This document shows positions 28,403-59,186 of a stretch of 64,000 bases of DNA, piece after piece. The notes under the pieces were generated by a model. That model made no database searches. It had not been told where the DNA came from and saw nothing but the letters and a program-made list of their open reading frames with translations. The translations under genes were made by a program, and so were the position numbers. The stretch lies in the NCBI GenBank assembly GCA_008632985.1, contig QPGO01000116.1:62001-126000 (forward strand), read 5' to 3'. Each line of letters begins with the position of its first letter. The stretch's first letter is position 1. Origin of the DNA: Psammoneis japonica. Taxonomy: Eukaryota.

Positions 28403-30125
28403 ATGACGAAGAACAGGCTACCATCTGCAACGAAGAATCATCGCCGCAATCGAGCAACGGCTACAAAGATCGTATGTGGAGCCCTCGCAACAATGTGCGC
28501 CCTCGCCACTGTTGATGGGTTCTCAACGGGACACTCAAATCAGAGGATCCAAAGACAAGCTCCTTTGCACATGTCTTCTCTGACTTCCGACGCAATGGGG
28601 GTGGCGGCGAAACGAGAGCTAATGAATCAGTTTCGAAAGACACACGCAGCTCAACCTAGACAGAAATCTTCTTCCAGCAGACGACGAGAGGCAATGAAGT
28701 CAATGGTGAAACGAAATTTGAATGCTGAAAAAGAGACTACTGCTCCCAACCAAAATGTTCTTTTCTCGCAGGTTCGAGCTAAAAGTGTACCTGCCGCTAG
28801 ATCATTTGCTAGTCGACACGGAAAGACGACCAAGGTCTCTAAAGTCAATAGCGATATCCTCGAAGAATCATTCCTTCGATACGGGAACGAAGAGCTTCTT
28901 ACAGCTCAAGAAGAGTACTCGTTGGCCATTAAAGTGCAATTCGTGACCAAATGTGAAGAAGTGTACGCAGGGCTGTCAAATCAACTGTTGAGGCTACCAA
29001 CAATTCCGGAATGGGCCTTTGCTTGCGGGTGAGTTCGTCGCATCGCTATTTCCCATACATTGTATTTTTTTGTCATACAGATTCTTACCTCTATTTTCTA
29101 CCATTTTGTTCTACAGATTTCAAACACCTGCCTACAATGATGTTGATCCGGACATTGACCGAAAGATCCGGCCAATGTCGATTGATTCTACTGGAAGCAA
29201 GACAAAGAAGGGGGGCAAAGGCAAGCCTGTGCTTCGACTTGGAAACTTTTACGACGACAGCGTACAGCGTTTCCAAAAAAAGGAGGGCAAGAGCAAAAAG
29301 AAGCAGAAGCTTCACCCCATCAATCGCGGAAATCTTCATGACTTTTGTCAAATGATGCTTGACGGCAAGGTGGCGAAGCAGCGCCTTATTCAGTACAACA
29401 TGCGACTTGTGGCTAGTATCGCGAACAAGTACTGCAGGGAGGGTTTGAGCGCTCAAGATCTTGTACAGGAGGGAAGCCTGGGCCTCGCTACGGCTGCCGA
29501 AAAGTTCGACCCGTCCAAGGGATTCAGATTCTCCACTTATGCGTCGTGGTGGATTCAACAGGCTGTCTTTCAAGCCCTTGGCCGTGATTCTCGTACCATC
29601 CGACTGCCCATGTATGTACACAATTTTCTTATCAAAATGAGAAAGGTCCGGGCCATGTTGTATCAAGAGCTGGGTAGAGCGCCGACGCCCAAGGAGGTGG
29701 CAGATGAAATGGAAATGCCAGTTGCTAAATACAACCAACTCGTTCAGTTAACACAGCAACCCATCTCTTTGGAGGCCCCAAGGTACCAAAGCAATTCGAA
29801 GCAAGATGCTGCTTCGAAGGAAGTTACAATGGAGGAGACGTTGGCGATGGAAAGAAACGAAGACGAGTTGTCCGTGAACCTTGCACTCTTTCGGAAGGAT
29901 CTGAAGGATATCTTTGATGAAGCTCTCAACGACGATGAGAAGGACTTAATGAATGCGCGCTATGGATTGGAAAATGGAGGTTTGACACGAACTGTTCCAT
30001 CGCTGGTGAAGGATTTGAACAAGAGCCCATCAAAGATAAGATCACAGGAAGCCGGAGCTATGCGAAAGCTACGAAACGCGAAGTTTGAACAAAAGCTAAG
30101 AGAGCATCATGCGGCTCTTGCTTAG
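28403..30125 (+). CDS. Nuclear-encoded plastid RNA polymerase sigma-70 factor
   Basis: Region 2 NMRLVASIA, DLVQEGSLGL, EKFDPSKGFRFSTYASWWIQQAV, SRTIRLP; region 4 RYGL...AMRKLR; intron 29029-29116; signal-like N-terminus ending VDG-F. Confidence 0.95.
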
Positions 30126-30659
30126 AATACAGTTTACAGTATCACCAGAAGATCGCTATACGGTGGTAATAAAAAATGTCTATCAACAGCAACAGTGATA
30201 TAATGTCGAAAGTAGTTGGCAGGGTGCGCATCGACCAAAACCGCAGACATACGAAATGACATCGTGAGCATTGAATGAACTCTAGAAAACATGTTGTGTC
30301 AATCGCACAGCGCTCTAGATCCTTTACCCCTGTACACCCACTTCTAGTGGCGCTCCCGTGCCAAGTCATTCACTGATGTGCACTAATAACGAACCGTCAC
30401 ACGGGAAAAACCTCCTTCGCTCCCTAGTCGTAATCTTAGTTCAGTCCCAATGATCGCACATCATCAAGAAAAAAACTATCCCCTTGAGTGATGCTCTACG
30501 CAAAACGGGGTACACGAAGAAGACAGATGCATGTCACAAACATATTCTACGAGTTTCTTGGCTGGATCTATTCTGTTTCTTGATTCCGCCAAAAACCACC
30601 TAATTTCAGCCTGTCGGGAGCTGAGTTGTTGATCAACGTAAAGAACAGAATTCGCAGGC

Positions 30660-39700: not shown

Positions 39701-41022
39701 GGGCATACATGTCAGAACGAGTCGATCAAACAAGCAACTATACAGAGCTAACTAGAGCAAAGGTTTCGTACCTTGTTTTCCCGAATCCGTCGGAGCGTGT
39801 CGGAGCCTTGTCTTGCCATTTTCGCAAAATCCGAAGACGCGTCTCTCACAGTCGGGACTGCCTCTCGAATGGTGGAAAAGGACGCTCGTCCGTCCAGAAA
39901 AGGCGGTTTGACTTGATGAACCAGCAATGTGACACGCGTATCATCATCGGTACGTACATCCAGGGACACCTCACCCTTTACAGCGGCACCCGAGCTAAGC
40001 AATCGGCTCTCCTCCCACGCGTCTTGGTCATCTTGCATGGCGCTTTTCCGGGCCGAGAATCGGCCAGACATGGGTGCTTCCTTTCGTTTCTTTTCCAGTT
40101 CTGCTTCTCGCGCTTGAATTTTGTCATTGGTAAAGAGAAAACGTCCCAAATCTCCGTTTCCTTCCATTTCAGATTGATCCACCACGTAGCCTCCATCTTC
40201 TTCTGCCAAGTAAAAGTTGCGTTCAAATTCAGAATCATCACTTTCATTGCCGTCACTCCTATGAGGTACATCTCCAGAAGTACGCGACAAGCGCGAGTCT
40301 TCATCATCCTGCAGTCGAGACGACAGCGGTGTTTCGTCATCCCACGATGATCTGCTAGAAGACTGCCGCCCGACCCCACGGCTGTCTTGTTCTCGCCGTG
40401 GAGTAGGAGCGTCTAGAGTGTCGCGACTGCGAGATGAGGGAGGCCTGGAGCGATTTGAAGCTTGGGTAGAGGGTGTCACTTGTGGTGGTGGAGGCATGTC
40501 GGATCGGCCGCGATACCCACTGCCCCCTCTAGAACCATCATCTCTACGTCTATCCGACCAATCACGATCAAATTTACGGTAGTTTGCGCCGCGATCATCC
40601 CTGCTTCTGCCTCCTCGGCTACTGTACGACTCATCCCTATTTCTGCCATCACGACCGCCTCCTCTGCTATCGTTTCTTCGTGAATAATCATTGTTTCGCC
40701 GATTGTCATGGTATGGATGATGTTGCCGTTGCCTTCGTTCCCGATCCCTCACTCGTTGCTGCGTGTCTCGATTTACACCACCTGAATGGCTCGGTGTTTC
40801 GTCCTGACGTCTGCGGTATTGACGCTTTTGTGGAACCTGCGTTTTTCGTTTTTCTGCTGCCAAACGATCCAGACCAAGCGCACTACTGCCTCTGGTCGAA
40901 GACGACGAAGATTTGCTAGACGACTTGACAAGTCCGCCTCCTGTCGAAGGCAGTAGCGACGTTAGTCGTGAAGTACTATCATTCTTCGAAGTTTCCTTGC
41001 CGCCACTTGATTCATCTGCCAT
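36713..41022 (-). CDS. PRP16: DEAH-box splicing helicase PRP16/DHX38 (multi-exon)
   Basis: [22 protein letters not shown] (split over exons), [52 protein letters not shown]. Confidence 0.96.
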
Positions 41023-41510
41023 GGTGGTACGTTTATCTAGGTACAAGTTGAAAGTGGATATTAACCGGCTGTTTTGAGAGTATACGCCGGGTATGATGCG
41101 ACTGCTCTAAGGCACTCCTACTTCTGATCGTCGTCTCGGCAATGGGAAAAATGACTTTCTTGTTTTTCGGTCAGATCGTTCGAGATCGTTTGGATCCTTT
41201 TATTACGGGTGCGGGTGTGGGTGAAAGGTTGGGGATAATCGATTGGCAGGGCGAAGGAAGGTTGCTTCCCTCGAAAACTCACTCTCTCGTCTCATCAACG
41301 TGCAGCACAACGTTGATGAAGAAAAGGAATGAGCTTGCTGCGGCTCGGACGGTGCTCGTAGACTCGCGTACTGCTTCTACGATGCGCTGGCATTGTAGAA
41401 GCAGATCGCGAAAACAACCCCCCCACTCGCGCAGGCAGGGGGGAGGCACAGACCACTGTCTCTCATTGGTCTATCTCCGATCTGCGCCGAATTACTGGTG
41501 TTTCGTCGTA

Positions 41511-42062
41511 GAACGAAAAGTTCACGTAGGATTATGTACTACGGCTACGCAAAAAAGATTCAATGTCCGTGAAATTTGTTCAATGTTGAGCCGCTCGTGT
41601 TAATTCCCCGTAGGACGAAAAATTCACGTAGGATTATGTACTAGAGCTACGTGAAAAAGATTCAATGTCTCTCAAATATCCTCAATGTTCGTCGAACGAA
41701 AAGTTCACGTAGATTATGTACTACCGCTACGCAAAAAAGATTCAATTTCCGTCAAATTTGTTCAATGTTGAGCCGCTCGTGTCAATTCCCCGTAGGACGA
41801 AAAATGCACGTAGGATTGTGTACTAGAGCTACGTGAAAAAGATTCAATGTCTCTCAAATATCTTCTCAATGTTCGTCGAACGAAAAGTTCACGTAGATTA
41901 TGTACTACCGCTACGCAAAAAAGATTCAATTTCCGTGAAATTTGTCGATGTTGAGCCGCTCGTGTTGAAGTGCCCCGTAGGACGAAAAATTCACGTAGGA
42001 TTATCTACTAGAGCTACGTGAAAAAGATTCAATGTCTCTCAAATATTCTCAATGTTCGTAGA
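41511..42062. repeat. Tandem repeat, 3 x ~183-184 bp, each a dimer of related ~100 and ~83 bp subunits
   Basis: gaacgaaaagttcacgtag at 41511, 41694, 41878; both subunits share cgaaaa..tcacgtag(g)attatgtacta..gctacg..aaaaagattcaat. Confidence 0.93.
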
Positions 42063-43849
42063 ACATTCTCTTGGGCTTTTCTTGGAATCGTCAACCAGCA
42101 AACCAGGGCTTGGTGATGTCTGTGGTTCAAGTGTCTCACAAAATGTCTCATCAGAACCATCCACGCACCTCTCCAGTCAACTTGATTGTGGTGCTTGCAG
42201 CCCACAAATGGCCTGACACAACAGGTGGAGAGAGCGCACAATGCTGCATCATGATTCCTCATCATCAGCAACACACAATGTTCTGTCTTGCACAGAGTTG
42301 TTGTCTTTTTGTGCTTTTGCTGTCGCCAAACAATTCTTGACAAACTGGCGACACGAAGATGTGAGGATGCATGATGTTTTTGTCCACTGTCCCTGACAGG
42401 CCAGCTGACTGCATTGACTGTGCAGCATCCACTTTTCTCTCTTTTTCTTCAGATCTTCGTCATTGTTGAAACTGACTCTCATGGCAACATCTGGAAGTTA
42501 AAGACCCCCGCAGCAGTCCATTTTGCTCTCGCGTTCTTCTTGTTGTCTGAAATTGCCCGGCGAGAGTTGGATCTTGTTTTCCTCATCCATCACCACAAGC
42601 CAAGTGATGCCATCCACTGAAGTGCCAATCATCTGAGCACAAAGAGGAGGAGACTTCTTTTTGCCCAAAGTGGAGACCATGTCTCCTCTTTTTGCTTTCT
42701 TTTGGAACTCAGCTGCTTCTTGGCAGCCTTGTTGGAAGCTCGCTTGTTGTTCCACAGTGCTGGCAAAGAAAGACCAAGTGCCCAGCTTTGTGCAGCAGCA
42801 CAACAGCTGCTCACACAAGCTTTGCCAGAGGGGAGGACATTTGAAAAACTGGTTGTCAACAACTTTGACTGCAGAGACAACTGGGTCAATGTGGCTCAGT
42901 CTTCACAGAGTCACAACAAGAAAGGGGCCTCACATTAGGAAGAAGCTTGATGACAGGAAATGAGTGGCATGTCATTGGCATTGAATGAGTTTCTGGGTTG
43001 CTGCAAGAGGGCTCCAAGGTGGCTCTCAGGTTCCTGCTGCAAATGACTGTGGCTGCAAGACATTGCAGTTGAAAACTGTCATCATTGGACATTGATTTTT
43101 AACAACATGGCATCAATCTGGGCTTGCATCATGTGATTGCCCTTGTCAGGTGAGGAGACAAGGAGGTTGGGTTGTTTGCACATGATCCCCAGTTTGAAAG
43201 TGAGCCATGCATGCAAAAAGCACAAAATGAAAAATCCATGTCATCATCTCAATGGAAAAGAAGTGCCACGTCAGATTCGCGCAGATGATGTGGGTGAATG
43301 ATTGAAAGACAAAAGCAACTGGTGCACTCAAGTGTTCAAAATTGATCACCTCAAAATGAAAAAGTGGCCAATCTTTAAGCCAGGAGTCAATGACACCCCA
43401 GCCCAAAAATGATCAGGGCAATTTGAAATTTGCAATCTTTTGCGGCTTCATGCTGATGAATTTGTTGTGTTCAGCCCCACTGCCATCAAAAGTCATTGGA
43501 TGCTGTTTCGGGCACAAACACCACTTGTGAATTTGATCATTTTGAAAGTGGTCAGCCCCAAACCCCAACTCTGTCTCACCCATCTGTCTGTGGTCTGTGC
43601 ATGAGGGCAGGGGGGAGACACTGACAGATTCTCAAAGTGAGTTGTTCCCACCTCACATTGGTTCTTGCAACCACTGGGGCCCCAGAGATTGGTGCCCAAT
43701 GCCAGTCGTGCCCTGCACATCATGTTCCAGTGTCATTTTTGGCTCTCTTGATTGTTGGCTGGCTGTGCCCAATGCCAGCTGTGCCCTGCACATGCTTCAA
43801 TGCCATTTTTGGCTCTTTGGTGCAAGCTTGATTGTTGGCTGGCTGGTGC

Positions 43850-44500
43850 AGGGCCAACCTCACAGGTGGCATGACCACAGAGAGGATGCAGCATGGAACT
43901 TCATGTCCGCCACATCCTCTGTTGCCCAAATGACCAAGCCTGGAGACACACCTTCCTTCAGGGTTTTCACAAGTGCTGTGATGAGATTGACGCTGTGCCC
44001 CCCTTGCAAGACTTTCTTCTTTCATCATTGGAGGCATGGTTTCATGACAAAATGTTGTGTGAGTTGGATGTTTGCCCAATGCTCCATCCTTCATGGAGAG
44101 AGCTCAGTTGTCTGGCATTGGATGACATCAAGTTTTTAATGGCCAGCACTCATCCTCATGGAGCACCTTCCAAGAGTTGCATCTCCAACAGTCTCTGGCT
44201 TGCCAGAGCAACACTGCAAGGAAAACCAGGTTCAGACAGGATCATGCATTTGACGTTTGAAGTTTGTGGTGGGAGCTTTGGGAAAAGCACAACAAAGCTG
44301 TCCATGATGTGGATTGAAGGAAATTTTCACAAAGGCACAAAGCCAAAGCTGAAGTCACTGCCATCCACAACAAATGCCAGGAATGTCTTGTCCAGGACCA
44401 AGCCACTCTCATGGATTTGTTTGAAGTGCACACGACACACGGCAGCTTGCAGATTTAGAGTTGGATTGCCGCAATCAAACTGTGCCCAAAAGCCAGTGTC
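43850..44500 (+). mobile_element. Degenerate non-LTR retrotransposon ORF2 C-terminal region (relic may extend left toward ~42100)
   Basis: HILCCP..WRHTFL, GIG*HQVFNGQHSSSWSTFQELHLQ and LWWELWEKHNKAVH resemble the recalled IGW...GR.S..W and W..W..RN..VH motifs of LINE C-termini. Confidence 0.65.
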
Positions 44501-45954
44501 AAACAGGTGAAGCACTCCATGCTTTGCGGCACTCACACCATTGTCAGTTGCTTTGGTGGGGGCATCCCCTTCCACCCATCCCAGCTGGTCCTTGTCCCCT
44601 TCTGCCACACTGATGCAGTGCACTGGAAGTGTGAGTCAGCTGGTGCTGGCATTGCTGGCAAAGGAGTGATGGCACTTTAAAAAATTAGATCTTTTTCATG
44701 GAGCTTGATGTCTGACAGCCGCTGCAGTCTGTGCAACAACCAACCTTTGTCAAGAATTTCTCCAACTGTCCCAACTTGTTTTCCTTGGGATTTCATCTTC
44801 TTTCTTGGGGGGCAACTCTCCTGCATTGTTCAAACCATCTGTCTCCCCCCCACCAGGGGAAGATTTGCTGTGTGTCATGTGGCTCATGACTGAAACTTCC
44901 CTCCAACACTCTCCCCTCATGATGCAAAAACATCATGTGTTCATCACAGCCAACAAAAGCCACTGCATTGTTCTCTTTTGTTTTTGCTTTCACCAAGGAC
45001 TTTTTGCCATCTCCTGTTGTGCCCAGTTGCACACAACTTGTTCTCTTGGTGGTGGCATCATCATTCCTGCATGGATGCAGGGATCTGTCAGGTTGTGAGC
45101 AATGTTTGAACACAGGTGCAAATGGGCCCTCTCTGCCACTGAACACAACAACACAATTTCTTTTTTTCCCATTGTCGACAACACCAGCAGAGAGTGTTTT
45201 CAATGTGAAGTCTCCTGCTGCTCTGTTGAGGACAATGGCGCTTGCATGTTGGACACCTTTTCATGCCATTGCCATTTGTTTTTGCAGCTGTTTGTGTGTG
45301 TTTTTTGGCATCTTTTCTCCATGCATGTCTTGTTTCTCATCAGTCTTGTGCTGTCAGGATTCCAACACCTGTTGCCCTTGCATGGTGCAAAGTCAGCAGC
45401 ATTTTGGCTGCTGACATGCCCACCACCACACAATGCTGCAAAACCATGGCACCTGCCAACAGCACTCAATGACCCAAAATGTCATCCCAATGGTGAGCCA
45501 AACTGTCATCCATTCAGGCCACCTTCTCCCCATTGTCAGCCAATGGTGCACCTGCCCCTGCAACCCCAGTTGGGAATCTCTGTCACAACTTGCTTTCTGT
45601 TGTCTCTGACTCATGCGCGCAATTCTGTTCTTCATTGCCTGCCAATGATGCTCAATTTTGCTCATCCAAAATGGGCCATTTTACTTCAAACAGGTCCAAC
45701 TTGTCCATCATGCTTGGAAATGCAGCTGGTCAGGCTGCCAGCTCATTTTGCTCTCTCTTTTTCTTCACACTCATGCCAGACCCAACTTCAATGTGTTCCA
45801 CCCTCACAAACACCTTGATCTTGTCACAATTCAACAAGTTCACTGCCCTTTTCTCAATTTGCAGAACCACATGATTCAACTTGGGTGATGAAAACAAAAA
45901 TCACCCATCTTGATCACCATGTCCTCCTCCTCCCCCCCCCCCCGGAAGGCAACA

Positions 45955-47909
45955 GTGCACGAAGCACACAAAAATTGCCATTTGACTGTTTGAAGCACGT
46001 TGTCGTCGCGATTGCCATGGTTGCTTTAATTCTCTGCTGAAGGTGAGTTGATCATCTTGTTCTTGTTTTGAATTGGATCTGCCGGAGTTAAGTCAGTCAT
46101 TGAATGTCGTCCGCACATGATCACCATGCAGACCTGAAGGCTTGGGTCCTTGACGGTTTTCTCCTCTGTGCACTTGATTGCGCATGTCTTTGGAAGTTGG
46201 TTCAAGGTGAAATGATGGTTGCCTGTCAAAGTGGTCTGTGGTTCCAATGGAGACACACCATGATTGCCAGCAAACTTGCTTCTTGCTTGTGCACTCAATG
46301 CTTGCAAACGTCCAATGCAGCAGCAACCCATTGCCAGCCAATGCACTTTTTAGTGCTTGAGTTGTTTGAGCAGGAACCACATGAGGGCCAGCCCCTCTTT
46401 CATCATTTTCTCATCACTCGCCAAAAACCTTGTCAACCACTTGCAGTTGAGAGAATGAAATGGAGAGGTTGAACCACGAATGATCGAGAGGATGCGCCGG
46501 CACTCATTGTGCCCCATGTCATCTGATGGTGGAGAGAAGCTTTTTCAAACTTGGAAACTGCAAGAGCAGGAAGTGAAGAGAATTTGACATCTCTTTTGCG
46601 CGAGACTGTGTGAGTGGACATTGAGAGCCCTTCATGAAAACCCAGCCAATTTGATCAAATGCGGGTGCTTCCTTTCATCCATTCAAATGACAAGCAGCTC
46701 AAGAATTTCTGCATGACATGCTTGGTCCATGGCACAGACTCTGCCCCTCTCTCCAAATCCTTCTCATCAACCAGCAATTTTGAGACACAAGGTTTGGCTG
46801 CATGCCACCTTTGAGAGCACCCATGGACAGCACATTGGACCACCCAGCAGACAACAACCAGTGATCCAAACAACACCTTGGACCCAGGTGGGCTCTGAGG
46901 CCAAAACAACCCCCCACAGAGACAAAGACATGCTCCACAACAATCCACCACAGTTGCAACCAGCCAGGCGTTGGACCATTTGATCAACTCCCAATCAAAT
47001 GGAAACAACGGAAACTGGTGGTTGGTCCATCCAATTGTGACAAATGTGACAATCAACAGGACAACGCAAACGACTTGTGTGACAGGCGCATCTCATGGCT
47101 CATGTCAAAGAAATGCAAAACAAGGCCAGAAGAGACACGCAGCCACAAGTGAATGAAAGCCAAGGCAGCCATCCAGCAGCCCAGATTGTGGTTCACAACC
47201 GCTCGCACAACAAGCAAGCGTTGCATCATTGTCATCATCTTCATGGGCATGATGTGGAGGTTGGAGGCAAAGAAATAAATCGTGGAGAGTTTGGAGCTCG
47301 TGCTGTTCAGAAACATGACTGACGTCATTGGGGTTCGCAACACAAAGCACACAAAATGTGACAGTGAAAAAACCGTTGCTTTTCCTGCCACATTTTCAAA
47401 AATTTTGAAACGGCAAGCCAAGCTGAACGTCCCGGTAACCGGCAAATCTGAATCACTTCACTCATTGTTGCACAAAGCACACAAAAATCGCCACCATTTG
47501 ACTTTTTGAAACACGTCGTCGTCGCGATTGCCATGGTCTCGTCAGTTCTCTGCTGAAGGTGAGTTGATCGTCTCGTTCTCGTTGCGAATTAGATCTGCTG
47601 GAGTCAAGTCATTGAATGTCATCCGCACACGATTGCCATGTAGACCTGAAGGCTTGGGTCCTTGACGGTTTTCATCTGTGCGTTTGATTGCGCATGTCTT
47701 TGGAAGTCGGTTCGAGGCAAAATGACGATTGCCTGTCAAAGCAGTCCGTGGTTCCGAGACGGAGACACACCACGATTGCCAGCAAACTCGCTTCTTGCAT
47801 GTGCGCTGAATGCTTGTAAACATCCAATGCAGCAGTGACCCGGTGCCAACCAATGCACTTTTTAGTGCAATGGTTGTTTAAGCAGGAACCACATGAGGGC
47901 CAGCCCCTG
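45955..47909 (+). repeat. ~440-bp direct duplication (45955-46398 vs 47470-47909)
   Basis: Alignable end to end; many differences fall at CpG or TpA sites. Confidence 0.92.
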
Positions 47910-48439
47910 CTTTCTTTTTTGAACACGCTGAACGCCTGTTGATGTCGTGGACTGAGACGGTGTGCTAGATGCCCCGAAGGGCAGCCTTTTTCGTGAAGGT
48001 TGCAAGGTGGTTCAGACCGCTTGAGTTGCTCATTGAGCATCTCACATCTGATCCCCCGCAGGTTTGACACTCCCATGGGTCGCCGGCCCATCATGTCAGC
48101 TGTGTTCTCCACGTCCCACAGCGTTTGAAGATCTGTTTTGTTGCGTTTGCGATTGTGACCGTCTCGCTGAGTTGTGCTTCATAACTCACACTCTTTTTCA
48201 GATTTGATTTTTGTTTTTGACAGACGACATGAATGGAGATGTCAATGGAGAAGCCATCATTTAGAAGCTTGTTTGTTGCTGGTTGGATGTCATCGCTGGT
48301 GCACCTTTCACTGTGGTTCTCAACTCCGTTTGAAGAACGCTTGACTGCTTCGTCTCGCTCAAATGTCCTTTTTGGCGTGCGTGCAAGCCATCTCAAGGCC
48401 AGGAAGCACAAGCATGGCCAAGCTTTTACATGCTGTGCA

Positions 48440-49030
48440 AGAAGATCATCAATTGCTGGCTCATTTTGACTGTGGAAATCTCTTGGCATGAGGCTCTCGT
48501 CCCCGTTCGGGCACTGCAAGAGTGCGTCGTCGCAAGATTGTCGTTCGCTCAAGCCGCGCTGCATTCGTCTTCTTTCGGACGCAAAGCTTTGACATCCATG
48601 TCGAGCCTGACACTCCACTGTCCTTTTCTTCCGACCTTCCCAAGTCCTCCTCCAAGAACTCTCTCTTAACATGCGGCTCTCGTCCCCGTTCGGGCACTGC
48701 AAGAGTGCTCCGTCGCAAGATTGTCGTGCGCTCAAGCGGTGCTGTGTTCGACATCTATGTCGAGCATTGACACTCCATCATCCTTTTCTTGCGGCCTTCC
48801 CAAGAAGATCATCGATTGCTGGCTGACTTTGACGATGGAAACCTCTTGGCGTGCGGCTCTTGTCCCCCCCTCTGGAACTGCAAGAGTGCTCCGTCAAAAG
48901 ATTGTCGTTCGCTCAAGCCGTGCTGCACTCGTCTTCTCTTGGACGCAAAGCTTTGACATGTGCATCAAGCCTTGGTGCCCTCTCGTCCTTGTCTTACAGC
49001 CTTCATGAGCCCTCGTCCAAGAACTCACAG
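48440..49030 (-). pseudogene. Three degenerate tandem coding repeats resembling helicase-associated (HA) domains
   Basis: Repeated TWEGRKKRTVECQARHG ... NGDESRM resembles W..R...L.EY...HG ... G..S.M, with Y->C; frameshifted. Confidence 0.45.
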
Positions 49031-49544
49031 AGTCGTCCAAGTCGTTCATGCCGTGCAAGCCATCCCGATCCGCAACAAGTCAGAGTGCTTGAATCAACTC
49101 GAAAGAGTTGTGGAAGGATCCAAAGCTGTTGGTGTTTCAACAGTCTTCCTCGTGCCATCGGGATGGCACCTGAGACCTCCAACAGGCATCTGCATCACAA
49201 GGCATTGAGGTTCTTAGGTTCGTGGGTTGTGTCAAAATGCAATGTCAAAGCCTTGGCATTCCGTGAAAGCCTGCAAGAGAAAGCTGCATCCTTGCACTCC
49301 CTCGTGAGTCCCTCACAATCACAGCAAACGCATCATGCTTTGAAATTCAATTTGATTTTTGGAAGATCAAATTGCAGCATTGGCAAGTCAAGCTACACTG
49401 CTGGAACTCCCACAGCAAACTGCAGCCAGAACCCCGTTGGACTGCGATGACGGTCGTAGCCCTTGCAATCTCGTTGCATGCGGCAGTTCCTTGCCTGGGG
49501 TCCATGCTGGGGCATTCGTTGCGGCAAGCCCTTGTCAAGTTTTC

Positions 49545-52500
49545 CGCTTCTGAAGGGCTCGCTTTCTTGCTGGTCTTCTCGATTCAGGCATTCAGAGGCT
49601 TCAAGCCGTGGCCAGAAGAGTTCTCAGCACTCTACCTGGACTGACTTTTGCCACAATCGGCATCCGCAAAGATCATGCTGTGCTGAATTCTTCTGCCATT
49701 GTGTCCAGCTTCGCATTTTGGAATTAAAGCAATGACACAACCGATGCGAGGCAGGATTTGTCAGGCCCGATTTGCTTTGTCGCCACTGTTCCATCAAGTG
49801 TTTCCATTGGATTTCCCATTGCATGTACAATCGCACGCATTCCCCAAGTCTGTCATCTTCATCCCGTCTTGGTTCGAACCACCGAACCGTTGAGAGACTT
49901 GATCTTGCCCATCCAAATCGGAGTGGGCAATTGAAGCAGTTCCTGCCAAATCTCAGGTCTTTTAGAACGTGCAATCTATGAAATGCCTTTTCTTTGAAAC
50001 ACATGTTCCAAATGTCCAGGACAAGCAAATAGAGCAGCAAATGCGCCAGCTTGGCAAAAAGGATCGGGAACACTTCGCATGTTAAGTCGTTCGAGCCAAT
50101 GTTCAAGCGACGCAGGTTCGTCAACTCGCGGAAGAAACTGTGTCATCTCCGACATGCAGAGACATCTCCGAGATCCCTTTCCAAGCACTCCAGGCCCCAC
50201 ATTGTTCCGCGTTCGACAGCCACTTGTAAAATGAAATCCAGGCATGAGAATTTTCCGTGTCAGTTGTGCTTCAGCAGAAGCAACCCAAAACCAAGCGCTT
50301 GATTTTCTGCGCTTCAGAGCAGCGAGTTAAGTTTGCATTGCATTGAAGCCATGCCAGAGCTTGCGACTGAGCTTTTGGGGTCATTGATCTCTGCCCCCAC
50401 CTCGGAGGGCAAACCTGGACGACGTTTCCGACAGAGACAGTGAACCGGTTGATCCCTTCTCGTTGCTTGAGTCGTCCTGCAGGGAAGATGTGACCAGCAT
50501 GCCCAGCACAAACGCCAAGGCAGCTCTAGAGCCAACACCCAGTCGCTGATGCAGCAGATCACCGATTTACAATGATCTCACATTTTGTTGCCTTTGCAGA
50601 GAGGAAGCAGTTCACCAGGAAAAAGGTCAGTCGACAAAGGACTCTTCATGCAAGAGATCCACACAAACTTCTTCGTTTCCAACAGGTGCCAACTGCATTT
50701 CTCTTTGGACAACAGCGAGCGTGTGCTCGGCATGGAATGAGCTCCAGTCGAAACAAGAATCTTGCTTGCTGCCCTTTGTCACCTGCCTTGTGACAGGTGG
50801 CCTTTCCAGCCTTGTGCTTGGGACTCTTCTCACTGGCGTCTTTCAAGAACAATGCATGTCATCAGGATCCTTGTTGTTGGGGCAAGCGCCAGGGAGGCCG
50901 GCATCCCAGCACTTGCTGGAGCGAGACTTCTTCTTGTTGATCATTTCGTCTGACGAAGGTGCCTTCGTCCCGACAATTGAAGCATCGACAAGTTTTGGAT
51001 CAGCAGCAATGCCAAGTTGGTCAAACAATTTGAGGATTCCAATCTCGTTGAACTTGAATCCTGTGGCGACTCATCGGATGAGCTGGGCGGGTCGCATGTC
51101 TTCAGACCCGTTCACGTGAGAGCTTCTCCAGCTCCTTTGTTTCGCAATGAGACATCTCAAGCGCAATCGAGTCACAAAGAGATCTTGTTCTTTGTGCACT
51201 TTGCGCAAGAAGACACTTGCCAGCTTTCATGCTACAATTCACACCTTGCCAACTCTGCGATCTGCTGGCGAAGGAATTCGACGCCCAAACCATGCATGTG
51301 TCACCACTCTGCTCTGGACAAGCCAACTTCGGCCCAATCTGCCAATCCAATGTCAGAAGAGCCAATGCTCTGCTCAATTGAGAGAATTTCCTGTTCCAAG
51401 AGAAGCAACTCTGCATCGGTCAAATCCAACAAGATCCTTCCATTGTCACCTCTGGGAGACTGCTCACAGCGATGCAGTGCCTCTCGTTCACCTTTGACCA
51501 GACCCAGCTCCTGCCAACCCACGAATCAGGACTTGGCGACGAAGCTCTGGAGCTCCCTGCCGACGCAACTGCAAACGAAAACTCGGCTTCTTCTTTGGGT
51601 AAAATGGCGCTTGGTGCTTGACCTTGGGGCTCTCCTGCATGAGAGTGCCCGTGAGGTTGGTGGGGCGGGGCCACTGTGTGTGAGGACGACAAAGGTGCGC
51701 TGTCAGCTTCAACAACCAGGCAATGAGTCGACACGGAAAATGTTGAAGACGCCAAGGCGTCACTGTTGACTTGGCTGCCTGGACTGACAGCAGAAAAATC
51801 GCTGCCGAAAGATCTGCTGTGGCCAACCAAAGAAAAATTGCCGCTGACCCGGCTTCCGGGATTGTGGGAGCATGTAAAAGACATTGAAGTGCTGCTGGTT
51901 CTGCTGCCTCAGAGGATTGCGCTCATCTTGTCGACGCTTTCTTCCTTTGCCATGCACCATGCCACCATCTCGTCCATTTCACTGCACGAATGCTCCACAT
52001 CTTCTTGATCTGTCTGAACCAGACCGGCACCTGATCTGTCTTCTGGTGGTGTTTGTTGGAGTGGATGCGGCCGGCTGGTGACGGGGTGGCAATCGCAGCT
52101 GTTGGAGGCATGGTTCGCATTCCTCCTCGTCTGGCTCATGCTGTCTCGGCAGTGGTGATGAGACCGTCGGACTGCTGTTGTGTGAATGCAACAGTGCTTT
52201 GACTGCCGCAGGCCCTGCGTCTTGATGAATGACCGCCCGTGATCGCATGAGCCCCGCGTGTTGCTTCTTCGTCTTTGTCTTCGTGAAACGATCCAGAGGA
52301 GGAAGATTCATCACTGCCACTTTCTCAGGTTTCTTCGTGGGACAACGTTGCCATGAATTCTTTGAGAGTGTCCAACTCTGCCATTGACTGCCCTGATTTT
52401 GTCTCTTCCAGCTCGGACCAGATCGAAGTGGACGATGCCCCCTCTTCATCGTGAGCTTGTTTCATCTTTTTTCATTAGCCGCTCTGTTCTTTCATGTTGC

Positions 52501-53050
52501 GCTTCATGCTTTCTACGCCCATGCTGGTTCGTACAACGCGTCTCGAAGAGCTCAGAGTGCCTGTGCATGTCTGCATCTCACGAAGTCGTGAGCTCTGCAT
52601 CATGTTGTGTTGTTGGCTTGCTCGGATGAAGAGCAAGCAGAAGCCATCACTGCTGCATGGAGTGACAGCACGTGCTTTTGAATTGGAACGACCCCTTCTG
52701 CTTTTGCTGAGCTTGTTGAGTTTGGTGCAAGTTGCTTCTGAAGGGCTCGCTTTCTTGCAAGTCTTCTCGATTCAGTCATTCAGAGGCGACAGCTTCAAGC
52801 CGTCACCAGAAGAGTTCTCAGCAATCCACCTGGACTGACTTTCGCCACAATCAGCATCCGCAAAGATCACAATGAATTCTTCCGACATTGTGCCCAGCTT
52901 CGCATTTTGGAATTAAAGCAATGACACAACCGATGCAAGGTAGGATTTGCCCGGCTCGATTTGTTTTGTCGCCCCTGTTCCACAATTGTTTTCCGTTGCA
53001 AGTGCCTGCAATCGCGCGCATTCCCAATTGGTTCGAACCGCCGCAACCAT
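49545..53050 (+). repeat. ~330-bp dispersed duplication (49545-49885 vs 52733-53050)
   Basis: Shared gcttctgaagggctcgctttcttgc, ccagaagagttctcagca, ccagcttcgcattttggaattaaagcaatgacacaaccgatgc. Confidence 0.9.
49900..50560 (-). pseudogene. Degenerate leucine-rich-repeat gene fragment
   Basis: LTNLRRLNIGSNDLT, LKDLRFGRNCF and GLPSEVG fragments in different frames. Confidence 0.55.
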
Positions 53051-53311
53051 TGGGACGTTTGTCATCAAAAGCAATCTAGTGTGAACAGAGGCACAAAGAG
53101 AGATGAGTGTGCAATGAAAAATCATGTCGAGCTTCCAAAAAAGTCACATCATCTCTCTCTCTGCTGGCAGAGCAGCACACTCACTTAAAAACAAAAAAGT
53201 CTTCGTTTCGCTCGCTGTTGAGAATTTCCACACAATTTACAACTCCAACATCATCATTCAGAGTAAAGCCCGAATCTTTTGACACGCTTTTGACTTGACC
53301 CCATTGTGGCA

Positions 53312-54088
53312 TCAAGTTAACCAGATGAACAGGGCCCTCCAACTTGCAGCGATGCCAAATGTCCAGCTTCCTTGAGAATTGCTGTCAGCATCCATTTTCC
53401 AATGGTTCGTGCACAGGGTTTCGTCATCAACATGCTTTGATTCCTTTTCTCTTTCTTCTGTTTCCAGCGCACACTGCCTGTTCTTTCCGGAACGATTCCT
53501 CTGTCTCGCCTCCAGCTCTGCCGCACTCTTGGCAACACAGAAACCTGGAGCCCGCTGAATCTCACCACATGGGACAAAGCTTGCACTCTGTTGGTCATGC
53601 GATGACTCAGAAATGGCCAAGATCTGACTTTGATCGCATTGCTGAAAACATTCCTTGAGTTGGACCAAATCTGCTGCACAACCTAATGCAATTGCACGGC
53701 ATGCCCAAGCAGCGTGAGTTTCCTTTGCACAGCTCGTGCATGGTTCATGCAAAACAATGTGTGGTTGATGTCGCGGTGAATCTTCTCGCTTGAAATCATC
53801 CTTTGCTGCTTCCACTGCTCCACTTAATTGTTTTGAGGGACTCCTTACAAGCTTGTCGTCACTGCCCTTGGGAACCGCCGGTGCAAGTTCCTGTCGCCAC
53901 CCAAAGCATTTCATTGTGCGAATCTCACAAACATTTTCATCCATGGTGCTTGCACAAGGCTTTTTCTTGACACGTGCCTCTTGACACTTTTGCAGAATTG
54001 AATCAAGCTCTCTGCATTGCTTTGATCTTTTGATTCGCTGTGCATCATTAAAGTCCGTCCACCATGAATTCCACCAGCTGCTTTTCAC
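53312..54088 (-). pseudogene. Hypermutated CX9C (CHCH-type) host gene
   Basis: Four CX9C motifs: CRELDSILQKC, CAKETHAAWAC, CAADLVQLKEC, CGEIQRAPGFC; no Tyr in 258 aa; no ATG at the ORF start. Confidence 0.6.
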
Positions 54089-54559
54089 ACACTGGCTTGC
54101 TCCTTGGTGTTAAAGTCGGTGTTCCTCACCATCATCAAATGAGCACTAGAGGCATTGAAGAGTTCAGATGCATGGATGCCATTCAACTGCAGCAGTGCAG
54201 TCCAGCACAGCGTTGTCAACGGATCTCCAATCTCCATCATGGTCGATGGATGGTCACGGAGCACGGAGCGAGCTCGCGGACGCGAGACTGACAGTGCCGT
54301 TGATGCAGAAATCAGCAGAAAAACTGTCTTTTCTGCACACGGGCATCCCGACAAAAAAGCGGGGACCCAGTTTTTGGAAAAAGCCATCTAACGAAATGCT
54401 CCACTTGGTGCCTGTTGTTGCACAATGCAAGAAAGAGAGAGAGAGAGAGAGAGAGCACAATCTTGTCCGAGAGGCGCATCTTCCACCATGGTGTCTCCCT
54501 TCAATGCATGCTGCACTGTGCACCGTGCATTGTGCGTGCCAGAAGCACGTGGTGCTGAC

Positions 54560-56924
54560 GCGCTGATGGTGGCTCACATCCCATGTGCTCCAGGCAGAAC
54601 AAGCTGGAGAGCCCCTGCTCCCCCGCAAACCCTCAAGCCTGCCAATGACTCCCAGATGAAAACTCGCCATTCTTTTCTCCTCATTGCCACTGTGTGCATT
54701 CAAGAATGTGTTGAACAGCTGGAGAAATGAATGAAGAGTGTTGGTGACTTCTGCAAGTGTTTCTTTCTTTTGTCCATTCCTCACTTGTTGCATCGTCAAA
54801 CCTGTCACCCAAAAACCTCAGATTGCACACAGTTGTCTTTCTCCTTCAGTGGCTTTGATGCCCCTGTCAGAAAAACTTTCCACTTTAGAGCAAGGAGGGG
54901 TTCACCCTTGGAATCAACGTGTGCTGCTTGCCAAAGTGCCAATGAGTTCATGCATCCAATGGTGAAAGCTTCGAACTCAAGAACTTGCAGCTCCCCTGGG
55001 GTGCCATGGAAGCTGCTGTCTCCCCAGCCAAGCAGCCAACATCCAAGCCCTTTTTGTGGTGGTGCCCCAGGTTGCTTCTTTTGGGCAGCTTGCCCAATCT
55101 GTTAGAAACTGGGCTGAGCAAGATGTCTTGGATCACACTGATTGTTGATTCTCTGCCACCTGTTTGTCGTTGGTCCAACACTGCACAACAAACAGCGGCT
55201 CAGTTTGAGGTGGCACATGTGCTGACAGCATTGCTTTTTGAAAAAAGCAACTGGCAACTCCAAACATTTTTGCTGCTGGTGCCATTCCGGCAAAATTTGC
55301 TTTTCACAATGATTGGTTGGGATTGGCCCATGAACAGCGACACACTGCTTGTTGCAGAACAAAGACCTGGGATTTTTGGTGAGTTGCTTTTGACACACCG
55401 CTGATGTCCTGAGTGGGCTTGTCTTGTTGCGCAGCATCTTTCTCTCACACATCCACAATGAAACATCAGAGACACAAGAAGATGTTGTGAAAGGAGAGTC
55501 AGCGCACATGTGTGGTTTCCTGCCTTTTCACTCAGAAGATGTCTTCTCATCTTTTTCTCATGATCTTCTTGTCATCTGTTGGTGCAATGACATTGATGGT
55601 CACAACAAGAGCATGTCAATCATGCTGTCCATTGTCACTGGATGCACTGCCAGTGATGTCATCCCCATGTTCAACCAACTGTCAAGTCGCGACACTCTCA
55701 GCCGAGAGTTGTCACAGGCTGGGAGCCCAGGTGCTGTGCTCCAACCACCTCTGCAGCACAAACACAGTGGCGCTCTCTTCTTTGAGAGCAACAGAACTTT
55801 TTGCAATGCCAGCAACTTGCCCCACTCAATGAATGGTTGCCGCGCACATCAGGCAATGACAACAAGTCTGCTGCCGGCAGCCAAGACTCAACTTCATTTG
55901 GCGTGCAATCCTTTGACACTGACAGCTCACCAAAGAACACCATCGTGCTGCCTTTCAGCACTCCTCCTGTCTGTGAAGCCTTCTTTGAAGCAGCCAGCAC
56001 CTCTGCCAGTCAAGTTGACCATGACATCAGAAGCAGTTGTCAATGGCAGGGGAAAGCACAAGCAGTGTGCATGCCCCCCAAGAACCCCCCAAGCCTCTCT
56101 GAGAAAGCCTTGTGCACCAAGACCCACCAGAGAGAAAGATTGGACCTGGACAAGCTCAGCAATTTGCCCCCAGAAAGCTGCAGCCAAGCAGCTCATGAAA
56201 TTTGATCTTGTTCTCAACATCAATGTTGACAACCCTGACAAGCTCAAAGACAGTTGCGATCCAGCTGTGTCCATTTTGATGATGCAGTCAAACTGCACCC
56301 ACTCATCTCAAAACCCACAATCTTCACAGGGACATTCTGTGATCATGGAAGAGGGAGTCACAGCAATTGCAGCGCAACTCTTGAAGATCTGGATCATGGA
56401 ACCTTGGCAAACAGAGTCCACATCTCAACCATGACTGCCACATCACCAAAAATGCTTCTTAAAACTTGTTCAGAAGAAAGCCAACAAAACTTGTTTGATC
56501 CCATTCTTCGTTTCGATTGGTCTGGTTCTATAGTTCACTTTTTAATTTGTGGGGCTTTCTTCATCTTACTACGTCAGCTAAAGGTATATCTTTTGGCTGT
56601 TTCTAGTGTTACCTTGTTGAACAGCGCGTGTTCAAGTTCACTGGATGTGAAATATGCAACTTCACAGGCATTCCGGAGCCATGCCCAAACACTACTAATC
56701 TTTTTAGTGGCTTTGACGAAATTGACTCGTTGGGCTCTGCCAGAGACAAGATTACTGAGCGCACATCACAAGGGACGTATTTTTCCGCGGAGGTTAGCTT
56801 CTGTTTCTATGACTACGATGAGGGCCAGCTACCTCCCGTGAATGGAGATAATTCAACTGCTATGCCGTCGGAGTTGCTGTTTGTACAAGACTCCCCCCCT
56901 GCCGCCAGAGAATGTCTTGGATAG
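54560..56924 (+). pseudogene. Degenerate host-like gene whose 3' coding segment (~56607-56924) lies outside the mutated domain
   Basis: Protein-like Tyr-free fragments with N-x-S/T sites up to 56434; downstream segment has normal TpA and Tyr codons. Confidence 0.4.
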
Positions 56925-57173
56925 TTCTGATGTTATGGATATGGGCATGGACTCGGAAGTTCATGCCGGGGAATAATCCACAATACTGAAGTTTTGTGCT
57001 ATGATTCTGCCGCACAAAATGCCCAACAATCACAACAGTTTTCTTATTCCTTTTCGAGGTTCTGAATACTATGAATTCCATTCGGCGTTCTTCTTATTTC
57101 TGCGGCATTTCTTTCGCCGAACTTGCGGCAACATGAAATCCCCCATGCATAGATGCCGCGTAGGTCCTGCACA

Positions 57174-59186
57174 CTATTCGGACAATGAAAGTTTGACACG
57201 AAGAATCCCGCATGTTTCGTTTTTTCGGATATTGGGATTCTGAAGCGTCAAACAAAGAGAATGTTGCCTCTGATCGAGAAGCATTTCGAGAGGGACCTCG
57301 CAAGTTCCAATGAATTCATCGTCTGATCTCCAAATTACAGCCTTGAGGTAGCACAAAGAAAACCCGAGAACAAGCAAAGCACCCGAGGCTAGAATCAAGA
57401 AGTCCCTCACGTTTCCGGTGCCTAAACCGTCGCTCGAGACAAATCTGTCAAGTTCACCTGTCACATGGGCAATAAGCACCACACAAATCAAACTGTAATA
57501 CAACAGCTTGAACACTTCATATCCAATGCCCCAGGCCCCAACGTCAGCATCCCATGCCTCGACACTCAGCACGGCATGTCTGCTTTCGTCATTTCGATAG
57601 TTCCCGTCAGAGTCCATCCTTCCGCCTTTCATTTGGATTTCCAATTTCTCGTTCCAGACCGGTTCGAGCGACATGTAGGCAATTTTCGACCGCACTTCCT
57701 CCATGTCGTAATTTGGGGTTTGTTGTTCCTTCCTGTCAAGAAAACCAATTGGTAAAACACGAAACTTCACGTAACAATCTGCTTGCCCATTTCTATCCAT
57801 CACGGGCAGCTTCCCAACACCAGGCGTGGTTCCAATTAGATGGATATGCAAAAACCGAGGTTGAAAAGACAGCAACGCTGCCGCACGTTCCAAGAGCATG
57901 GCAACAATATCAGCAGATACCTTTTTATTCTCCATTTCTTGTAAGCCTTCGGCACTTAACAACCACCTTGAAAGATCGAAAAGCTTTTCTGTCGTATCTT
58001 GCTTCACTGCGCCTCCGTTCAGAGACGTATCAGTGTAGTCGTATTCCCATGGTGTAAGCGTCGACTCTTCTTCTTCTTCTTCTTCGAGGAGCATCGCTTG
58101 TTGAAGTTGTCCAATGACTCTCAATGATGCCTGGTTCATCAGAATAGAATTTCGTTGAGCTGGATTTCGCTTGACGTTCCCTTCCAGAATGGCCAGCTGG
58201 TCGGTGACAAACTGTCCACCTATATCAATCAGGATATCCAGCTGTCTCTGAGCAGCTTCGTGACTGCCATGGTCCATGATCACGGCAAAATAGGACGACC
58301 AACGAGACAAGACCTTTCTTACTTTCCGATAACAATAGTTGGCACCGTCAAAGAACATCAACCATAGAATCAAGATAAGCTTGACTTCGTAGTAGAAGGG
58401 AAACTTTGACAGCAATACTCGTGCGAATACTCCTTCTAGGAACATGGAACCAACCGCAATAATCCAAAATGTCAACCATTGTCGGTCGTCAGCCCCGCCT
58501 GTTGTCTCGATCGCGACGATGGACTGATATCCACCGTAGAAGATTGTGAGGAGACCACCGACGATATGAGCCACTTTTCCGGTACCCGATGCCGCCGCAA
58601 TACAAAAGGGACCAGCCCCGGGTTCTCCGCAATTCTTTTGCGACAAAAGACCGGCCGCCAAAGCCGCTGTGTGCGTCGCTGCTGCTCGCTGCATGCCCAC
58701 CCATCGACCGATCCCTGGACGAAGTTCGCACGTGTACGATAATCTTTGTCGTCGCCGGCGACAATACTTTCTTGGTTCGCAAGACCAGAGAGGCCCTTTC
58801 TCGCATTCCATATCGGTCAACGCCGGGGCGTCCATTCCTCGACTGCTCCCATCGTAATCTTCGTCCGTACAGTATCCCGCTGCCACGCACGGGAACTTGG
58901 TAGAAGTGGCCGACACGTCCTGTAGGTGTTCGCACATGTGCATACATTTTGGAATTCGTAAGCACAGCCAGGAACACGGCACCGCCTGCAACCCCTCGCT
59001 TCCCCTCATCAACCCCGCCACCACGTCGTCACAGAGATCGCACATGTTCTCGGCCGTTTCGTCCCGACGAAAGACCGGTATGGACGCTCCCACCAAACGA
59101 GTCAGTTTCATCACGGAAGACAAGTCGTCGAGCACGTTGAGACCGGCCCAAACGACCACGATGGGTTTCAGCAGGAACATCACCAT
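57174..59186 (-). CDS. Cys-rich (saposin-like) + TB2/DP1/HVA22 + C2-domain membrane protein
   Basis: CDLCDDVV...PCVAAGYC; DDRQWLTFW and FPFYYEVKLILILWL (HVA22); LPVMDRNGQADCYVKF, PVWNE, AWDAD, DEFIG (C2). Confidence 0.85.
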   Translation of the reverse strand: MVMFLLKPIVVVWAGLNVLDDLSSVMKLTRLVGASIPVFRRDETAENMCDLCDDVVAGLMRGSEGLQAVPCSWLCLRIPKCMHMCEHLQDVSATSTKFPCVAAGYCTDEDYDGSSRGMDAPALTDMECEKGPLWSCEPRKYCRRRRQRLSYTCELRPGIGRWVGMQRAAATHTAALAAGLLSQKNCGEPGAGPFCIAAASGTGKVAHIVGGLLTIFYGGYQSIVAIETTGGADDRQWLTFWIIAVGSMFLEGVFARVLLSKFPFYYEVKLILILWLMFFDGANYCYRKVRKVLSRWSSYFAVIMDHGSHEAAQRQLDILIDIGGQFVTDQLAILEGNVKRNPAQRNSILMNQASLRVIGQLQQAMLLEEEEEEESTLTPWEYDYTDTSLNGGAVKQDTTEKLFDLSRWLLSAEGLQEMENKKVSADIVAMLLERAAALLSFQPRFLHIHLIGTTPGVGKLPVMDRNGQADCYVKFRVLPIGFLDRKEQQTPNYDMEEVRSKIAYMSLEPVWNEKLEIQMKGGRMDSDGNYRNDESRHAVLSVEAWDADVGAWGIGYEVFKLLYYSLICVVLIAHVTGELDRFVSSDGLGTGNVRDFLILASGALLVLGFSLCYLKAVIWRSDDEFIGTCEVPLEMLLDQRQHSLCLTLQNPNIRKNETCGILRVKLSLSE

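Follow-up and report, generated by a model that had tools for sequence, protein, structure and literature searches.

Region-restricted depletion of TpA, separable from CpG decay, in a diatom-like nuclear genome

RESULTS

TpA and CpG depletion in three blocks

We analyzed a 64-kb window (48% GC) of Psammoneis japonica contig QPGO01000116.1, in which a previous sequence-only reading had flagged the stretch at 47500-53050 as one where the loss of TpA dinucleotides was uncoupled from, and ahead of, the decay of CpG. The window contained three aberrant blocks (D1, D2, and D3) that occupied about 27 of the 64 kb, and the flagged stretch was located in D3, which spanned 42.065 to approximately 56.4 kb. 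All three blocks were nearly free of TpA and enriched in CpA and TpG. Most of the block DNA had lost CpG as well, whereas the flagged stretch had kept much of it. We consider it likely that the blocks record a region-targeted A:T>G:C hypermutation at TpA in silent DNA, accompanied by a separate and slower decay of CpG.

Dinucleotide counts were expressed as observed/expected (o/e) ratios, with the expected values calculated from base composition and with the gene regions (all DNA outside of the blocks) serving as the reference. The gene regions had a CpG o/e of 1.00 and a TpA o/e of 0.60, and the TpA o/e never fell below 0.41 in the 1-kb bins that were wholly outside of the blocks. As the sequence-only reading had stated, the flagged stretch (5551 bp) was TpA poor and had kept abundant CpG; it contained 34 TpAs compared to the 325.8 expected (or about 196 if the gene-region o/e of 0.6 is applied) and 274 CpGs compared to the 363.7 expected, and the example segment quoted for this composition was indeed found at 48492-48536. 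The same state extended beyond the flagged stretch, from about 47.0 to 54.6 kb. In this zone, which we refer to as D3b (47000-54600; edges set from CpG positions), the o/e values were 0.10 for TpA, 0.72 for CpG, 1.49 for CpA, and 1.45 for TpG, and the GC content was 0.503.

The claim that "domain 1" and the segment at 42.1-46 kb had lost both dinucleotides was also borne out. In the case of D1 (11950-22288), the o/e values over 11950-22200 were 0.04 for TpA (32 TA in 10.25 kb), 0.13 for CpG, 1.87 for CpA, and 1.83 for TpG; for D3a (42065-47000), they were 0.04 for TpA, 0.19 for CpG, and 1.79 and 1.78 for CpA and TpG, respectively. Both losses were likewise observed in D2 (30640-33400; TpA o/e 0.07 and CpG o/e 0.16 over 30500-33300) and in D3c (54600-56460; TpA o/e 0.02 and CpG o/e 0.24 over 54500-56250), the tail of which (56251-56459) had 0 TA compared to 8.7 expected. 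Across D1, D2, D3a, and D3c, which we call the old blocks, the o/e values of CpA and TpG were 1.7-1.9. A second, small zone of TpA loss with CpG retention was found at the right margin of D1 (22289-22574, 286 bp), where there was 1 TA compared to 10.3 expected at the gene-region o/e and 14 CG compared to 17.3 expected.

When the window was divided into 128 non-overlapping 500-bp windows, 72 were normal, 40 had lost both dinucleotides, 16 had lost only TpA (those at 46001 and 47001-54001), and none had lost only CpG. Thus, 16 of the 56 TpA-low windows kept CpG and the reverse state occurred in 0 of 128, which agrees with the claim that TpA loss was uncoupled from CpG decay and preceded it. The o/e values of TpA and CpG did correlate across the 500-bp windows (Spearman 0.79), but only because both were low in the same blocks. 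Between 46.4 and 47.5 kb, CpG density climbed gradually and without a step.

The block edges were sharp, ranging from a few bases to about 300 bp. The left edge of D3 was exact to a few bases: it adjoined a CG- and TA-rich, unmutated 182-bp tandem repeat (41506-42064), the last TA and CG of which were located at 42057-42060, and TpA was gone immediately past 42060-42064, where the untouched repeat ended. Tandem Repeats Finder reported a period of 182, 3.0 copies, and 93% matches for this repeat, which had a CpG o/e of up to 1.9, a TpA o/e of 0.72, and CGTAG motifs. The right edge of D3c was located between 56257 and 56509.

Sequencing evidence and conversion of TpA to CpA and TpG

The sequencing evidence consisted of contigs of two public runs from one sample (X1 and X2), exact 31-letter words, and word depth. 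Run X1, for which no platform is on record and which may be the window's own source, contained 0.89 of the sampled words of 47000-56900, and the sequence was present in one sample only. X1 contigs with a word depth of about 60 matched the blocks with 0 to 3 other letters over 0.6 to 2.4 kb (e.g., 43541-45943 with 3 other letters and 50470-52024 with 1). The blocks are real sequence and assembler error was excluded, with the proviso that the agreement with X1 is not fully independent. Run X2 behaved like a data set that contains the genes and unmutated repeat copies and lacks the decayed blocks: over 41000-58000, the flanking genes showed 0 differences, and the blocks were matched only by diverged copies (approximately 88-90% alike) whose overhanging ends were TA and CG rich. 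No contigs of a third run, X3, were placed on the region, and no RNA data set was listed with the region's words.

The number of pyrimidine-purine steps (CG, TA, CA, and TG combined) per kb was about 243 in the gene regions, 240 in D1, and 235 in D3b. Since CA and TG gained what TA and CG lost and the total was conserved, the blocks reflected conversion and not a native absence of TpA and CpG. The GC content shifted as conversion predicts, from 0.480 in the gene regions to 0.471 where both dinucleotides were lost and 0.503 where only TpA was lost. ApT, ApA, and TpT were little changed in the blocks, and a small drop in ApT followed from the loss of ATA and TAT.

A relative in the unmutated state was available for 46585-46848 (+ strand), for which a diverged copy was found in X1 and X2. 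This relative, checked for a TpA poverty equal to that of the window, was not TpA poor; it contained 14 TA and 10 CG, and the window contained 0 TA and 3 CG. By our reading of the listed differences, 24 of 32 placed a CA or TG in the window opposite a TA or CG in the copy, and these 24 comprised 14 TA sites, 8 CG sites, one CG created via T>G, and one TA created via G>T. On a larger scale, 739 X1 contigs matched 41-58 kb at 85-99% likeness, which indicated that much of the block belongs to repeat families. Transitions predominated among the differences between the X1 copies and the window (C>T 82, G>A 62, T>C 63, and A>G 56, with each transversion at 5-14). The counts for X2, which were summed over all placed contigs and carry no context, were 67 for C>T, 47 for G>A, 28 for T>C, and 29 for A>G.

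Similar traces were observed between paralogues within the window. Double changes between CA and TG, the expected trace of independent hits on ancestral TA or CG, were found in 7 of 11 pairs at 1 to 7 per pair, and internal duplicates of D2 differed through such changes. For the repeat in D3b with copies at 49546-49844 and 52734-53025 (both + strand, 84% identical), 11 of 18 transitions were in pyrimidine-purine steps.

Strand symmetry and a neighbor rule

Both strands were hit, as CA and TG were balanced in every block. The product was set by the flanking bases (R, purine; Y, pyrimidine): R-TA-R became R-CA-R, Y-TA-Y became Y-TG-Y, and R-TA-Y became either. R-TA-R sites dropped from 10.7 to 1.6 per kb, and the 109 surviving TpAs were mostly Y-TA-R. 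We calculated the survival of each context relative to its frequency in the gene regions, which stood in for the ancestral composition. Survival was 0 for ATAC/GTAT (0 in the blocks versus 238 in the gene regions), 0.014 for ATAT, 0.025 for GTAC, and 0.035-0.058 for ATAA/TTAT, ATAG/CTAT, and CTAC/GTAG; it rose to 0.16 for GTAA/TTAC, 0.22 for CTAG, 0.29 for CTAA/TTAG, and 0.76 for TTAA. A per-strand model with four parameters, in which survival of the A depended on its 3' neighbor (0.84 for TAA, 0.42 for TAG, 0.16 for TAC, and 0.055 for TAT), reproduced the palindromic classes.

A runs test of the CA/TG order in the R..Y context detected no strand-coordinated tracts in five sub-blocks (z, -0.90 to 1.31). 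Therefore, the footprint looked like many independent single-site events and not like processive tracts.

Separability from CpG loss

The sequence-only reading had proposed that adenine mutation saturates faster than 5-methylcytosine (5mC) deamination and is not a by-product of it. Part of this proposal stood. TpA loss was separable from CpG loss and ahead of it, and C>T changes were confined to CpG, since the drop of TpC in the old blocks was accounted for by the loss of TCG. Because C>T occurred only at CpG, TpA loss was not a by-product of 5mC deamination. The assignment to adenine as opposed to thymine is a presumption, as the sequence shows only TA>TG and TA>CA changes on both strands. 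CpG loss itself showed a mild preference for the 5' base; per-C survival was 0.27 for TCG, 0.34 for ACG, 0.40 for CCG, and 0.62 for GCG.

The two losses could be compared in one repeat of about 450 bp, which had a copy in the CpG-poor zone (copy A, 45956-46401, + strand; 11 CG and 3 TA in 444 bp) and another in the CpG-keeping zone (copy B, 47469-47914, + strand; 26 CG and 5 TA in 443 bp). The copies were 85% identical and both were nearly TpA free. Of 21 sites that differed between CG and TG or CA, copy B had the CG at 17 and copy A had it at 4. The copies also showed four double differences between CA and TG and six differences between TA and CA or TG.

Residual TpA differed between the zones. 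D3b retained 48 TpAs in 7501 bp and the old blocks retained 61 in 19739 bp, which corresponded to twice as many per kb in D3b (p = 0.0002). Survivors were located in resistant contexts in 23 of 48 cases in D3b and in 44 of 61 cases in the old blocks (p = 0.017).

Nature of the blocks

The blocks were best described as decayed, non-coding repeats. A Pfam scan of 128 stop-to-stop open reading frames (ORFs; at least 90 amino acids [aa]) in the blocks yielded only four matches, all below the Pfam cut-offs: LRR_8 (E 2.5e-4, 21.2 bits compared to a cut-off of 27), EMI, and two zinc-ribbon families. No family was found at E <= 0.1 in the six frames of D3 (42065-56253) with stops read as X, and no reverse transcriptase domain was detected by Pfam among the 128 block ORFs or the six D3 frames. 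The ORFs in D1, D2, D3a, and D3b were not longer than expected by chance in 200 second-order Markov simulations per block. In D3c, a 285-aa ORF piece was longer than in 199 of the 200 simulations (P = 0.005). This piece is contained in a 346-aa ORF (55394-56434, + strand) that runs from inside D3c to its edge; the 346-aa ORF had no Pfam match, and its best score in a protein atlas was 0.77 (recognition 1296), with no usable lead.

Copy number varied among the blocks. D3c was single copy at 85% likeness or more (word depth about 61-72). The segment at 47237-48370 had the highest copy number of the compared region, with a summed word depth of 1821-2349 compared to approximately 62 for single copy; this segment includes copy B of the repeat of about 450 bp, which may be a long terminal repeat, although no target-site duplication or TG..CA ends were established. 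The unmutated tandem repeat to the left of D3 had a summed word depth of about 570-660. As it was multi-copy and yet untouched, being repeated was insufficient for targeting. D1 contained an array of five units of approximately 170-230 bp at 18198-19270 and a sixth, partial copy about 1 kb away at 20079-20531. The array copies were 63-94% alike, and TpA was wholly absent across 18.0-19.0 kb.

Genes and other features of the window

The long ORFs outside of the blocks were those of ordinary nuclear genes. They encoded a PPR protein, a Trp/Tyr-type permease, a sigma-70-type factor, a CBF/Mak21 protein, the tail of a DEAH-type helicase, a TB2/DP1 and C2 protein, a CBS protein, and a DUF6824 protein. 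The closest relatives of the permease were at most 54% identical, and one related cluster included a protein of the diatom Entomoneis. The sigma-70-type gene (28301-30125, + strand) was split across two overlapping frames, which suggests one short intron or a frameshift. Its product began with a signal-peptide-like leader followed by phenylalanine, and this N-terminus looks like a plastid-targeting signal. We take the leader with its phenylalanine, as well as DUF6824, to be diatom-like features.

The 129 bp adjoining D1 (11817-11945) had 0 TA (3.6 expected, P about 0.03) and 12 CG. This segment overlapped the 5' end of the PPR reading frame, the first ATG of which is at 11954 on the minus strand; its lack of TA may reflect the TpA process leaking into the start of the gene, or chance. 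A 271-bp tandem duplication with nested inverted repeats of 42-49 nucleotides (86-98% complementary) was found at 8528-9176, in intergenic DNA of normal composition with a CpG o/e of 1.47.

DISCUSSION

The explanation that we favor as likely has two components. In the 14-kb D3 and the two other blocks, TpA would have been converted to TpG or CpA in a region-restricted manner through many independent single-site events on both strands. In 5'-TAT and 5'-TAC, the A (or, viewed from the other strand, the T of ATA and GTA) would nearly always be converted; conversion would be less frequent in TAG and would hardly occur in TAA, such that TTAA would survive. The conversion of CpG to TpG or CpA would be a second, slower process that is near-complete in the neighboring blocks and about a quarter done at 47.0-54.6 kb. 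The TpA step probably proceeded via adenine deamination. Specifically, an enzyme would deaminate adenine to hypoxanthine in chromosomal DNA and would be aimed at silenced, foreign, or repeated DNA, as has been proposed for the chlorarachniophyte Bigelowiella natans (Mettrop et al., bioRxiv 10.64898/2026.01.13.699255, April 2026 preprint); the CpG step may be the ordinary deamination of 5mC in methylated repeats. A broader version can be put forward only tentatively, and we lean against it as a whole: a chromatin-targeted DNA adenine deaminase with a TA(T/C) rule, to which TTAA is nearly immune, might be a genome defense common to distant SAR algae (rhizarians and diatoms) that quickly inactivates foreign or repeated DNA, independently of and before cytosine methylation, with residual CpG in TpA-stripped DNA recording the time since silencing.

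Several points weigh against the two-process explanation. The enzyme, methylation, and ongoing mutation were not observed; the data capture the end state, and the mutated base, A or T, cannot be read from it. The context survival values depend on gene regions that are used in place of the ancestral composition. Run X1 lends no independent support, since it is possibly the source of the window. The only unmutated relative that could be compared site by site spans 264 bp immediately to the left of the flagged interval, and 47.5-54 kb was compared through the summed, context-free X2 counts. Within the TpA-low windows, residual TpA and CpG were correlated (Spearman 0.52), which suggests that the two processes share exposure and leaves room for a common machinery. 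No deaminase or methyltransferase family was detected among the 25 window ORFs scanned outside of the blocks. Finally, the 62 metagenome loci around related permeases (273,317 bp, 999 windows) contained no such block at ordinary GC. In those loci, the TpA o/e was less than 0.2 in 15 windows, all in three contigs of GC 0.59-0.71, and none of the 15 combined low CpG with high CpA and TpG. The metagenome contigs were short and gene centered, and they are weak evidence on distribution.

The age of the flagged stretch was part of the sequence-only reading, which took residual CpG to date the entry of each segment into the mutagenic state and the flagged stretch to be the youngest layer. This is plausible. 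The larger amount of residual TpA in D3b and the larger share of survivors in sensitive contexts fit less total exposure, i.e., a younger layer. The same data also fit a territory that is less targeted and unmethylated, and a lack of methylation would account for the kept CpG just as well. It is quite possible, if somewhat short of an even chance, that D3b is un- or lightly cytosine-methylated and no younger, that the TpA and CpG processes target overlapping but different territories, and that residual CpG is no clock. The CpG-keeping 286-bp margin of D1 looks like a territory edge and not an age layer, CpG density rises gradually and not stepwise between 46.4 and 47.5 kb, and copy number, which is low over much of D3b (word depth 80-190 compared to about 62), does not separate the states, given that D3c is single copy and yet fully decayed. 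However, the doubled residual TpA and its sensitive contexts indicate less exposure overall, and copy B, which lies in D3b, has lost at least four CpGs, so CpG decay does act there. A single machinery for both dinucleotides, such as a deaminase that targets both A and C when they follow a 5' T, TpA being the better substrate, would make the two losses one process with two rates. The losses always share territory with no CpG-only window, both yield CpA and TpG, CpG loss is strongest after a 5' T (TCG survival 0.27), and DNA editing at both A and C has been reported for ADAT2 enzymes, as cited in the B. natans preprint. We nevertheless regard a single machinery as unlikely, because C>T changes only at CpG fit a dependence on methylation and because the two losses scale differently. 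From D3b to the old blocks, the log-survival of CpG grows about sixfold (o/e 0.72 to 0.13-0.24), whereas the increase is just about 1.3-fold at the sensitive R-TA-Y sites (from 0.3 to 0.1 per kb, relative to a reference of 13.8 per kb; the counts are very small). In addition, the preprint text reports no C>T component for the hypermutable B. natans regions, where A>G and T>C accounted for 230 of the 231 mutations.

If RNA or cDNA had been edited before integration, as by ADAR or APOBEC on retroelements, the elements would have arrived TpA poor; the coincidence of block edges with element edges (e.g., 42060-42065) and a 5' T/U preference resembling that which the B. natans preprint gives for ADAR are in keeping with this. 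Such editing predicts TA>TG on one strand, but R-TA-R sites were also lost and require hits on the opposite strand, CA and TG were balanced in every block, adjacent duplicates in one block carried independent CA and TG outcomes, and neither a reverse transcriptase nor any other Pfam domain was found in the block ORFs or D3 frames. Strand symmetry largely refutes editing before integration, and we consider it very improbable. Even less credence can be given to a sequencing or assembly artefact in which modified bases in silent chromatin are miscalled as TG or CA. The unrecorded platform of the supporting run and the chance that it is the assembly's own data speak for an artefact; yet the blocks were recovered from exact 31-letter words at a depth of about 60, mixed calls and not a clean consensus free of TA and CG would be expected from a strand-specific miscall, and TA- and CG-rich copies of the same family were read normally in the same runs. 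Equally remote is native composition or selection, by which the blocks would be foreign DNA in which TA and CG had been avoided all along. That no known protein domain points to where the blocks came from is compatible with foreign DNA. Against it, relatives from the same sample have TA and CG at precisely the affected sites, the pyrimidine-purine total is conserved, the product strand depends on the flanks, and the blocks offer selection no coding signal to act on. We also rejected GC-biased gene conversion, as TpA was the only A/T-containing dinucleotide affected, and UV or other general damage, as the block edges were sharp.

Hardly any cases are known in nature of targeted A:T>G:C mutation of chromosomal DNA. 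Apart from papers on fungal repeat-induced point mutation (RIP), our full-text literature searches found only the B. natans preprint and no report for diatoms. The window would represent the saturated end state of a B. natans-type signature in a diatom-like genome, which would make the TpA process widespread among major marine algae and not a curiosity of one species. It also provides a natural experiment in which the TpA process is separated from CpG decay, and methylation data could then be used to test the order of silencing steps. For base-editing research, a natural adenine deaminase that acts on DNA in a defined context would also be of interest.

The blocks resemble fungal RIP, a genome defense, in that dinucleotide-specific transitions occur in repeated DNA with sharp boundaries, possibly leaking a few hundred bases into the flanks. 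In ascomycete fungi, the RIP papers, as far as their available text goes, describe C>T changes at CpA that create TpA and lower GC. In contrast, TpA was destroyed here, CpA and TpG were created, and GC was unchanged or raised, and the strand-coordinated runs of mutations that go with RIP were absent. RIP targets duplicates only; many parts of the blocks are multi-copy, but D3c is single copy at the likeness cut-off used, and the 182-bp tandem repeat was untouched. Diatom DNMT4 is related to fungal RID and has no known function, transposable elements are CpG methylated in diatoms, and the available text of the source describes no RIP-like mutation (PMC9998398). The conversion of CpG to TpG or CpA is like ordinary 5mC decay, with an o/e of 0.13-0.24 in D1, D2, D3a, and D3c and a weak effect in D3b (0.72), but CpG decay leaves the loss of TpA and the stretch with TpA lost and CpG kept unexplained. 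Like ADAR hyper-editing and APOBEC activity, the signature consists of clustered transitions that would be driven by a deaminase and aimed at selfish nucleic acids. Those enzymes edit RNA or cDNA on a single strand; here, both strands were hit site by site. The preferred 3' neighbor of ADAR is G, and the resistant 3' neighbors in the blocks were purines. On the 5' side, ADAR favors U, as stated in the B. natans preprint.

The closest known system is that of B. natans. In the mutation-accumulation lines described in the preprint (10.64898/2026.01.13.699255), A>G and T>C changes occurred only at TpA in integrated giant-virus and virophage regions; of 231 mutations in these hypermutable regions, 230 were of the two types and, according to the authors, all of those were at TpA. 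They arose at about 6e-7 per site per generation, and in some lines only. Its authors name an ADAT2-like candidate. The main text of the preprint, supplements aside, contains no mention of CpG, context, trinucleotide, TTAA, or diatom. Both systems show A:T>G:C changes at TpA only that give TpG or CpA depending on the strand (here inferred from the end state), in discrete nuclear regions with the rest normal (72 of 128 windows here). Both also show TpA depletion with CpA and TpG enrichment (in clustered 1-kb windows in B. natans) in sequences that are mostly unannotatable, and an adenine deaminase is proposed as the agent in each case. The differences are that B. natans is a chlorarachniophyte and the host here is diatom-like, on a different supergroup branch; that mutation there is live and the window holds an end state; and that TpA depletion in the giant-virus region is milder (Rho 0.45) than the near-saturation observed here (TpA o/e 0.02-0.10). 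In addition, the DNA affected here is repeated or unidentifiable with no viral domain found and may or may not be of viral origin, and CpG loss accompanies TpA loss, whereas the main text on B. natans does not mention CpG. Beyond what the preprint text offers, the window adds evidence for site-by-site hits on both strands and a quantitative neighbor rule that any candidate enzyme must reproduce and that can be checked against the 231 published B. natans mutations. The TpA signature is the same as that of B. natans, and what is new is its occurrence in a different lineage, its saturation, its neighbor rule, and its uncoupling from CpG decay.

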